64,000 nt of DNA from the NCBI RefSeq assembly GCF_056712565.1, contig NZ_CM160072.1; one strand, given 5' to 3'. Positions 3,001 through 6,000 of this stretch are shown in pieces. Made by a program: the position numbers. The stretch's first letter is position 1; each line of letters opens with the position of its first letter.

Positions 3001-6000
3001 CGCCAGGCGCGGCAACGGGGTTATCAACTGCTGATTGCCTGCTCGGAAGATCAGCCCGACAACGAAATGCGCTGCATTGAGCACCTTTTACAGCGTCAGG
3101 TTGATGCCATTATTGTTTCGACGTCGTTGCCACCTGAGCATCCTTTTTATCAACGCTGGGCTAACGACCCGTTCCCGATTGTCGCGCTGGACCGCGCCCT
3201 CGATCGTGAACACTTCACCAGCGTGGTTGGTGCCGATCAGGATGATGCCGAAATGCTGGCGGAAGAGTTACGTAAGTTTCCCGCCGAGACGGTGCTTTAT
3301 CTTGGCGCGCTGCCGGAGCTTTCTGTCAGCTTCCTGCGTGAACAAGGCTTCCGTACTGCCTGGAAAGATGATCCGCGCGAAGTGCATTTCCTTTATGCCA
3401 ACAGCTATGAGCGGGAGGCAGCTGCCCAGTTATTCGAAAAATGGCTGGAAACGCATCCGATGCCGCAGGCGCTGTTCACAACGTCGTTTGCGCTGTTGCA
3501 AGGGGTGATGGATGTCACGCTACGTCGCGACGGCAAACTGCCTTCTGACCTGGCAATTGCCACCTTTGGCGATAACGAACTGCTCGACTTCTTACAGTGC
3601 CCGGTGCTGGCAGTGGCTCAACGTCACCGCGATGTCGCAGAACGTGTGCTGGAGATTGTCCTGGCGAGCCTCGATGAACCGCGTAAGCCAAAACCTGGTT
3701 TAACGCGCATTAAACGTAATCTCTATCGCCGCGGCGTGCTCAGCCGTAGCTAAGCCGCGAACAAAAGTACGCGCCAGGTGAATTTCTCTCTGGCGCGTTG
3801 AGTACGGGAATGGACATCAATATCCTTAAAGTAAATAAGACTATTCCTGGCTATTATTGATAAATGCTTTTAAACCCGCCCGTTAATTAACTCACCTGCT
3901 GAAATTCACAATAATTAAATGATATTGACAGCGCGTTTTTGCATTATTTTGTTACATGCAGAGATGAATTGCCGATTTAACAAACACTTTTCTTTGTTTT
4001 TGCGCAAACCTGCTGGCATCAAGCGCCACACAGACGCAACAGGGACTGTTAACCAGAGAAGATATGTCCTAAAATGCCGCTCGCGTCGCAAACTGACACT
4101 TTATATTTGCTGTGGAAAATAGTGAGTCATTTTAAAACGGTGATGACGATGAGGGATTTTTTCTTACAGCTATTCATAACGTTAATTTGCTTCGCACGTT
4201 GGACGTAAAATAAACAACGCTGATATTAGCCGTAAACATCGGGTTTTTTACCTCGGTATGCCTTGTGACTGGCTTGACAAGCTTTTCCTCCGCTCCGTAA
4301 ACTCCTTTCAGTGGGAAATTGTGGGGCAAAGTGGGAATAAGGGGTGAGGCTGGCATGTTCCGGGGAGCAACGTTAGTCAATCTCGACAGCAAAGGGCGCT
4401 TATCAGTGCCTACCCGTTATCGGGAACAGCTGCTTGAGAACGCTGCCGGTCAAATGGTTTGCACCATTGACATTCATCACCCGTGCCTGCTGCTTTACCC
4501 CCTGCCTGAATGGGAAATTATCGAGCAAAAATTATCGCGTCTGTCGAGCATGAACCCGGTTGAGCGCCGTGTGCAGCGCCTACTGTTAGGTCATGCCAGC
4601 GAATGTCAGATGGATGGCGCAGGTCGATTGTTAATCGCGCCAGTACTGCGGCAACATGCCGGGCTGACAAAAGAAGTGATGCTGGTTGGACAGTTCAACA
4701 AGTTTGAGCTGTGGGATGAAACAACCTGGCATCAACAGGTCAAGGAAGATATCGACGCAGAGCAGTTGGCTACCGGAGACTTATCGGAGCGACTGCAGGA
4801 CTTGTCTCTATAAAATGATGGAAAACTATAAACATACTACGGTGCTGCTGGATGAAGCCGTTAATGGCCTCAATATCCGTCCTGATGGCATCTACATTGA
4901 TGGGACTTTTGGTCGCGGTGGTCACTCACGTCTGATCCTCTCGCAGCTTGGCGAAGAGGGGCGTTTGCTGGCGATCGATCGCGACCCGCAGGCTATCGCC
5001 GTTGCGAAGACTATTGATGATCCGCGCTTCTCCATCATCCACGGACCTTTCTCCGCGCTGGGAGAATACGTTGCCGAGCGCGATCTTATCGGCAAGATCG
5101 ACGGCATTCTCCTCGATCTTGGCGTCTCTTCACCGCAACTTGATGATGCTGAGCGCGGCTTTTCCTTTATGCGCGATGGTCCGCTGGACATGCGTATGGA
5201 CCCAACCCGTGGGCAGTCAGCCGCTGAATGGCTACAAACCGCAGAAGAAGCCGATATCGCCTGGGTATTGAAAACCTATGGTGAAGAGCGTTTTGCCAAA
5301 CGCATTGCCCGCGCCATTGTCGAGCGTAACCGCGAACAGCCGATGACCCGCACCAAAGAACTGGCGGAAGTCGTGGCTGCCGCAACGCCGGTGAAAGATA
5401 AGTTTAAACATCCCGCGACCCGTACCTTCCAGGCGGTGCGCATTTGGGTAAACAGTGAACTGGAGGAGATAGAGCAGGCGCTAAAAAGCTCGCTCAATGT
5501 GCTGGCCCCGGGTGGGCGGCTTTCGATCATCAGCTTCCACTCGCTGGAAGACCGCATTGTGAAACGTTTTATGCGTGAAAACAGCCGCGGTCCGCAAGTT
5601 CCGGCAGGGTTACCGATGACAGAAGAGCAGCTCAAAAAACTGGGGGGCCGTCAGTTGCGAGCACTAGGTAAGTTGATGCCGGGCGAAGAAGAGGTGGCTG
5701 AGAACCCTCGTGCCCGTAGTTCAGTTCTGCGTATTGCAGAGAGGACGAACGCATGATCAGCAGAGTGACAGAAGCTCTAAGCAAAGTTAAAGGATCGATG
5801 GGAAGCCACGAGCGCCATGCCTTGCCTGGCGTTATCGGTGACGATCTTTTGCGATTTGGGAAGCTGCCACTCTGCCTGTTCATTTGCATTATTTTGACGG
5901 CGGTGACCGTGGTAACCACGGCGCACCATACCCGTTTACTGACCGCTCAGCGCGAACAACTGGTGCTGGAGCGAGATGCTTTAGACATTGAATGGCGCAA

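Follow-up and report, generated by a model that had tools for sequence, protein, structure and literature searches.

Described MraZ operators

According to papers citing Eraso et al. 2014 (J Bacteriol 196:2053), E. coli MraZ represses other dcw genes as well as its own expression. In strain K-12 the protein is reported to bind conserved 'MraZ boxes', repeats located upstream of mraZ, and to repress transcription from the promoter Pmra. In B. subtilis the corresponding elements, termed MBRs, consist of three GTGG[A/T]G repeats separated by 4-nt spacers, and a triple of this kind is found only at the mraZ promoter in that genome. The repeats are needed for repression by MraZ, and substitutions R15A and R86A in the DXXXR motifs of the protein abolish activity (White et al., bioRxiv 10.1101/2022.02.09.479790).

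Structural information is available from M. genitalium, where MraZ was visualized by cryoEM on four GTG(G/T) boxes with 6-nt spacers (PMC12957436; PDB 9qlr, 9qlg, 9sx6). EMSA and cryoEM indicate that Lys13, Arg15 and Arg86 read the bases and that binding is cooperative and sensitive to spacing. The transcription start in this organism lies inside box 1, and three boxes are reported for most bacteria (PMC12957436). In B. cenocepacia, the MraZ site of PmraBc is located downstream of the -10 element 'as in E. coli', overlaps the transcription start and is bound in EMSA (PMC7761207). An analogy between such sites and the tandem-box operators of beta-strand repressors was drawn by a 2026 structural paper. 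Operators of MetJ, Arc and CopG and of AbrB/MazE swapped-hairpin proteins have in common with MraZ operators helically phased short direct repeats, neighbouring subunits that act cooperatively and beta-strands placed in the major groove. MetJ, Arc and CopG differ however in belonging to other folds and families with unrelated box sequences, meaning that the likeness is one of mechanism and not of membership.

The mraZ promoter of the window

The window, the whole 64-kb stretch of DNA that was analysed, is on sequence grounds part of an E. coli chromosome. Over a 1,061-bp stretch around the boxes there is 100% identity to E. coli Nissle 1917, ATCC 11775 and further strains, and this stretch was found in 5,423 of 5,426 complete E. 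coli genomes. RefSeq lists the genes of the matching region in the order ilvI, ilvN, fruR leader peptide, cra, mraZ, rsmH, ftsL and ftsI; murE is also found downstream of mraZ, after rsmH, ftsL and ftsI. The end of cra falls at window position 3753, and mraZ spans 4355-4813. Pmra drives the proximal genes of the division/cell-wall cluster, and autoregulation by MraZ at the boxes helps set their dosage. The features of the region are as follows.

4274..4279, + strand: -35 hexamer TTGACA of Pmra (mraZ1p), located by consensus scan
4280..4297, + strand: promoter spacer of 18 nt
4298..4303, + strand: -10 hexamer TAAACT, located by consensus scan
4310..4317, + strand: transcription start zone, with 4310-4312 predicted from promoter geometry and ~4317 from the published 5'UTR
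4311..4315, + strand: MraZ box 1, GTGGG, read directly (unit 4311-4320, GTGGGAAATT)
4321..4325, + strand: MraZ box 2, GTGGG, read directly (unit 4321-4330, GTGGGGCAAA)
4331..4335, + strand: MraZ box 3, GTGGG (unit 4331-4340, GTGGGAATAA), its fifth G being unusual for the order
4313..4344, + strand: canonical G-quadruplex motif GGG-N7-GGGG-N6-GGG-N5-GGGG, found by regular expression, G4Hunter score 1.68, overlapping the operator
4341..4349, + strand: purine-rich Shine-Dalgarno region GGGGTGAGG, read directly, with a putative role in ribosome binding
4355..4813, + strand: mraZ coding sequence, 152 aa plus stop, from RefSeq annotation and Pfam (PF02381, E = 4e-47)

The promoter, TTGACA and TAAACT separated by 18 nt, matched 10 of 12 consensus positions in the scan. 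Box 1 starts 7 nt past the -10 hexamer, and the distance from the end of box 3 to the mraZ ATG at 4355 is 20 nt, with the GAGG of the Shine-Dalgarno region ending 5 nt 5' of the ATG. We take these repeats to be the known MraZ operator, at which cooperative binding of MraZ over the transcription start would lead to negative autoregulation of Pmra, and assign this reading a probability of roughly 0.93. It draws on the anatomy of the site and on the adjacent gene being mraZ, on the triple being unique in the window and conserved, and on its link to the promoter. MraZ binding and repression at this particular site are presumed from the K-12 literature, the operator sequence being identical.

Three evenly spaced GTGGG repeats at 4311, 4321 and 4331 had been proposed from the sequence alone. 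All three boxes lie on the + strand, where they recur at exactly 10 bp, and this triple is the only one in the 64 kb. The pattern GTGGG-N5-GTGGG-N5-GTGGG, with up to one mismatch allowed, gave a single match in the window on both strands; 0.02 matches per window are expected from dinucleotide-preserving shuffles at the same tolerance. The looser GTGG-N6 triple was likewise unique to this site in the window. Two-box pairs were observed 4 times as compared to 3.6 expected, that is at chance level, and it is therefore the third box that gives the site its significance. The repeat is reportedly written as TGGGN with a 5-nt spacer in the 2014 work of Eraso and co-workers. TGGGN with this spacer is the same repeat with the register shifted by one base. 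A candidate fourth box, GTGAGG at 4344, was rejected as it lies 13 bp past box 3, out of phase and inside the Shine-Dalgarno region.

The E. coli mraZ1p transcript is reported to have a 38-nt 5'UTR (PMC5089854). This length puts the start at ~4317, within the box-1 unit, and both candidate starts are at or inside this unit. The start derived from the 5'UTR falls ~13 nt past the -10 hexamer, which is further than usual and points to a slight error in the mapping of the start or in the assignment of the -10.

Compared to the described systems, the site most directly corresponds to the K-12 Pmra operator, which occupies the same locus and also has three direct repeats between Pmra and mraZ. Positions 4292-4375, comprising the -10 hexamer, the three boxes, the Shine-Dalgarno region and the mraZ start, are identical to K-12. 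The single difference within 4230-4375 is at 4291, a C here versus an A in K-12, in the promoter spacer and outside the boxes. The C is typical of the lineage of the window, to which Nissle 1917 and ATCC 11775 are 100% identical. This identity, together with the PF02381 match of the downstream gene, bears out the placement by the sequence-only reading of an MraZ operator upstream of mraZ at the head of the dcw cluster.

The B. subtilis MBRs resemble the site in having three GTGG-core boxes with a 10-bp period in the mraZ promoter but differ in the bases that follow GTGG and come from a different phylum. The M. genitalium operator, with its transcription start inside box 1, parallels the start zone in the box-1 unit here, although it contains four boxes as opposed to three. 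Its protein is only a distant relative of E. coli MraZ (E ~1e-11), and free M. genitalium MraZ, whose complex with DNA was solved, is an octamer whereas a dodecamer has been reported for E. coli MraZ, so that the stoichiometry on three boxes may differ. The B. cenocepacia site likewise has GTG-containing repeats with a 10-bp period past the -10 and over the transcription start; it differs in having four 7-nt repeats separated by 3 nt and a leader of 100 nt. Near mraZ no PdhR box (AATTGGTNNNACCAATT, up to 3 mismatches) was detected, and the operator of pdhR itself at 41752 gave the only good match; this absence agrees with the very weak in vitro binding of PdhR reported at mraZ.

Conservation of the boxes and alternative readings

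Loci for comparison were collected by a cluster-representative search with E. coli MraZ and a search with an alignment of ten homologues, resulting in 80 loci from one-genome-per-species assemblies. Identity to MraZ declines across them from 96% in Escherichia albertii to ~51% in Pseudomonas, Shewanella and Methylococcaceae. The counts rest on the 79 loci with upstream DNA, and as the loci are phylogenetically related they do not represent independent events. The sequence-only reading had staked its case on the repeats being retained in orthologous mraZ promoters, and they are: an exact GTGG-N6-GTGG-N6-GTGG was found within 200 nt upstream of mraZ in 72 of the 79 gammaproteobacterial loci, and a copy with one mismatch in the other 7. 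The rest of these loci, 507,542 nt searched on both strands, contained no copy of the triple. The boxes were on the coding strand and in the same phase in all 80 sequences compared. In three deeper MraZ relatives (36–38% identity), two phased boxes were observed along with a degenerate or displaced third, which in one of them is phased at +20 bp.

A MAFFT alignment of 38 Enterobacterales, unanchored on the boxes, was used to measure identity to the window. The 12 GTGG columns of the three boxes and the -35 hexamer were 100% identical and the -10 hexamer 98%, while the mean for the 18-nt promoter spacer was 86%. Positions 4304-4310 reached 54% and the inter-box spacers 51–72%. The fifth base was G in 92%, 76% and 8% of the Enterobacterales sequences at boxes 1, 2 and 3, respectively. 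GTGGG, as the repeat was first given, is exact in the window, but the conserved core is by this alignment GTGG, with a lineage-specific fifth G, and the complete GTGGG at box 3 is, among the sequences compared, a peculiarity of E. coli.

The repeat might in principle be a functionless direct repeat that arose by chance or mutation, for instance through slippage, and GTGGG pairs 10 bp apart are indeed no rarer in the window than chance predicts. The low expectation for the triple speaks against this, as does the 100% conservation of the core positions amid variable neighbouring bases, which extends to loci with as little as 51% MraZ identity. On account of the conservation data the chance reading is excluded, its probability being practically nil.

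Distances within the promoters point to what the boxes are tied to. A -10-like hexamer precedes box 1 by 4–12 nt, and by 6–8 nt in 65 of 77 scored promoters, whereas box 1 and the start codon are separated by anything from 34 to 111 nt across loci. The distance to the -10 is near-fixed and that to the start codon free, and the element therefore, as judged from these spacings, goes with the -10 hexamer and the start of transcription and not with the -35 hexamer or the ribosome-binding site. A TTGACA-like -35 is found in most of the 80 loci. The earlier placement of the boxes downstream of TTGACA is correct, the hexamer being present at 4274-4279, and can be refined in that the boxes also follow the -10.

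The same distances bear on a possible role in the RNA, in which the repeats would influence mraZ translation from within the 5'UTR, be it as a structure, as a standby site for ribosomes or as pause sites resembling a Shine-Dalgarno sequence. Such an element would be in keeping with the purine- and G-rich composition of the boxes and with their location in the transcribed leader, ahead of the Shine-Dalgarno region. Folding of the leader RNA was however no better than that of shuffled controls (z = 0.21), and a scan against Rfam at gathering thresholds gave no match at the mraZ leader. That the boxes keep their distance to the -10 and not to the start codon argues for a role at the level of DNA and promoter, and an RNA element is considered extremely improbable.

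In E. coli only, a canonical G-quadruplex motif overlaps the boxes; it is not conserved. The motif at 4313-4344 comprises four tracts of three or more Gs joined by loops of 1–7 nt.

The G-runs could on this basis be read as a G-quadruplex, formed in non-template DNA or in the mRNA 5'UTR, that impedes transcription or translation of mraZ, the role as MraZ boxes then being secondary. Apart from the fit to the four-tract pattern, the G4Hunter score is among the highest in the 64-kb window, and for S. aureus a 2025 paper reported a functional G4 downstream of the mraZ promoter, claiming conservation in Gram-negative bacteria (PMC11796246). Biophysical support for quadruplex formation has been published for the S. 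aureus sequence only. The canonical motif occurs however in 1 of the 80 sequences, namely the E. coli window itself, and a version with two-G tracts in 35 of 80. E. albertii is without a canonical G4 because its box 3 reads GTGGT. A three-tetrad G4 needs the third G of each run, which is precisely the variable base (G in 62, 44 and 16 of the 80 sequences at boxes 1, 2 and 3), whereas a G4 has no need for the T of GTGG or for the strict 10-bp phase, both of which are invariant. Low stability is furthermore predicted from loops of 7, 6 and 5 nt. The published reading of the region as a conserved G4 does not hold across Gammaproteobacteria as far as motif comparison can tell, and we consider a quadruplex very unlikely to be the primary function of the repeats.

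A narrower possibility concerns E. coli itself. Compared to the other 79 species, E. coli alone has a fifth G in all three boxes, and the motif is fixed in the species. These fifth Gs form, together with the GGGG of the Shine-Dalgarno region, the canonical G4 motif of the non-template strand and the mRNA leader. It may add a structure-based layer to the control of Pmra in E. coli, which we regard as unlikely. If true, MraZ binding might face competition from the quadruplex, or the ribosome-binding site might have its first Gs sequestered, and G4 ligands could act on the E. coli dcw promoter in the way claimed for S. aureus.

MraZ and its proposed mode of repression at Pmra

The MraZ operator reading is further in line with the product of the adjacent gene, named 'division/cell wall cluster transcriptional repressor MraZ' in RefSeq. 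The protein contains two DXXXR motifs, D11-R15 and D87-R91, as well as K13. Across 43 diverse MraZ sequences D11, R15 and R91 were invariant and K13 was at least 90% conserved. The base-reading Lys13, Arg15 and Arg86 of the M. genitalium protein correspond to K13, R15 and R91 here. Solved structures of MraZ relatives are found in the PDB under 9qlr, 9qlg/9r4j, 9sx6/9sz7 and 1n0e-g. A longer MraZ of 164 aa, starting from an in-frame TTG at 4319, was rejected since RefSeq and most homologues among the matches listed give 152 aa with an ATG start.

The locus combines what is found at described operators. Three direct repeats with a GTGG core, within the GTG(G/T) type, are spaced by 10 bp in the same orientation and positioned past the -10 of the mraZ promoter, at or over the predicted transcription start. 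An MraZ gene encoding both DXXXR motifs is adjacent and is followed by rsmH and ftsL, and the boxes are conserved in orthologous promoters.

The regulator would be the product of the immediately downstream mraZ, an oligomeric protein of the AbrB/MazE type with two DXXXR motifs per subunit. Adjacent subunits would each read one GTGG box, a geometry of one subunit per box that is presumed for E. coli. A spacing of one helical turn (10 bp) would place the boxes on the same face of the duplex and allow for cooperative binding. The bound stretch is predicted to begin 7 nt past the -10 hexamer and to take in the transcription start as well as the first ~25 transcribed bp. With ~+1 to +25 occupied, RNA polymerase would be unable to form an open complex or to escape from the promoter, presumably for steric reasons. 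In this way mraZ would be under negative autoregulation, and the promoter-proximal dcw genes would be repressed along with it.

The element has already been described both experimentally and structurally, and its rediscovery adds nothing new. The sequence-only reading had called it a conserved regulatory feature and not a novelty, and rightly so with the boxes conserved and the operator already published. What is added here is a quantitative picture of conservation, consisting of the GTGG core, a position that is nearly fixed relative to the -10 and free with respect to the start codon, and near-invariance in 5,423 E. coli genomes.

Within the species the boxes are, going by these genomes, essentially invariant. 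A 121-bp query was at least 99% identical in 5,387 of the 5,423 genomes. The 43-nt stretch 4304-4346 was identical in 4,842 of 5,423 and had one mismatch in 581. A 5-bp CAGTG deletion in strain WS3294A, which could be real or an assembly error, removes box 1 and is the sole box-disrupting variant seen. In all three of the one-mismatch genomes that were fetched, one of them ST131, the mismatch was C4309T, two bases 5' of box 1.

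A G-quadruplex motif at the mraZ operator

The stretch holding the three MraZ boxes (GTGGG repeats starting at 4311, 4321 and 4331) also reads as a canonical G-quadruplex (G4) motif:

4313-4344, + strand: canonical G4 motif GGG-N7-GGGG-N6-GGG-N5-GGGG, shared in part with the MraZ boxes and with the Gs of the Shine-Dalgarno sequence

Its G4Hunter score of 1.68 was among the top scores of the 64-kb window, in which two further canonical G4 motifs, and no others, were found, at 13204 (+ strand, GGGCTGGGTGATGGGCTCGCGGG) and 26033 (+ strand, GGGAAGGGGAGCCGTGGGGTAAAGAAGGG). When the mraZ operators of 80 gammaproteobacterial sequences were compared, a canonical G4 motif was present in one, that of E. 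coli, as box 3 has an E. coli-specific fifth G. A G4 in the mraZ region has been described as "conserved" (PMC11796246), a claim that this occurrence of 1/80 contradicts, at least for Gammaproteobacteria.

Operator variants and the start of MraZ

Across 5,423 E. coli genomes, the 43-nt operator stretch (4304-4346) carried one mismatch in 581. In all three of the one-mismatch genomes that were fetched, an ST131 strain among them, the mismatch was a C-to-T change at position 4309, which precedes box 1 by two bases; the boxes themselves were intact. The same base as in the variant is carried at this position by E. albertii. Box 1 was lost in one complete genome, E. coli WS3294A (locus L003, NZ_CP035819.1), through a 5-bp deletion that is due to an assembly error or else makes the strain a natural operator mutant:

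4309-4313 (equivalent window positions): CAGTG, deleted in WS3294A

mraZ is annotated to start with the ATG at 4355. Within the operator, a TTG in the same frame (4319) opens a 164-aa ORF (4319-4813, + strand) that lengthens MraZ by 12 residues and probably accounts for the MraZ calls of 158-164 aa among database homologues.

The mraZ promoter across loci

The 18-nt spacer of the mraZ promoter (4280-4297) was 86% conserved across 38 Enterobacterales, and its length, one above optimal, was retained from Escherichia through Shewanella and Pseudomonas. Such conservation far exceeds the need of a passive spacer, and a further constraint or factor may lie behind it. Some loci, among them Pseudomonas-like and Idiomarina-like ones (fetched mraZ loci L040, L043, L063, L072, L075, L076, L079, L081, L083 and L084), had an additional GTGG inside the -35 hexamer or directly following it, as in TTGACGGTGGGG. 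This GTGG is placed about 32 bp upstream of box 1, or roughly three turns of the helix, and could serve as an auxiliary MraZ box; the E. coli mraZ promoter lacks it.

PdhR sites and Rfam matches

41752-41768, + strand: perfect PdhR box, AATTGGTAAGACCAATT

This box is presumably the operator of pdhR itself. Near mraZ no comparable PdhR site was found with up to 3 mismatches allowed. Control of the dcw cluster by PdhR has been published, with weak binding in vitro (PMC3265435).

Rfam matches elsewhere in the window
19945-20034, + strand: PssrA (RF02797, "plasmid-encoded Shigella sRNA A"), 105 bits
25681-25750, + strand: STnc40, gathering score, between a 901-aa ORF (23000-25705) and the following ORF at 25765
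26154-26229, + strand: naRNA4, gathering score
42609-42722, - strand: tp2, gathering score
49045-49087, + strand: ES036, gathering score

The families tp2, STnc40, naRNA4 and ES036 are known ones of enterobacterial small RNA or REP type. The PssrA match runs from the last bases of ftsA (18703-19965) through the ftsZ leader (ftsZ start at 20026); the family name is odd for a chromosomal ftsA-ftsZ junction.
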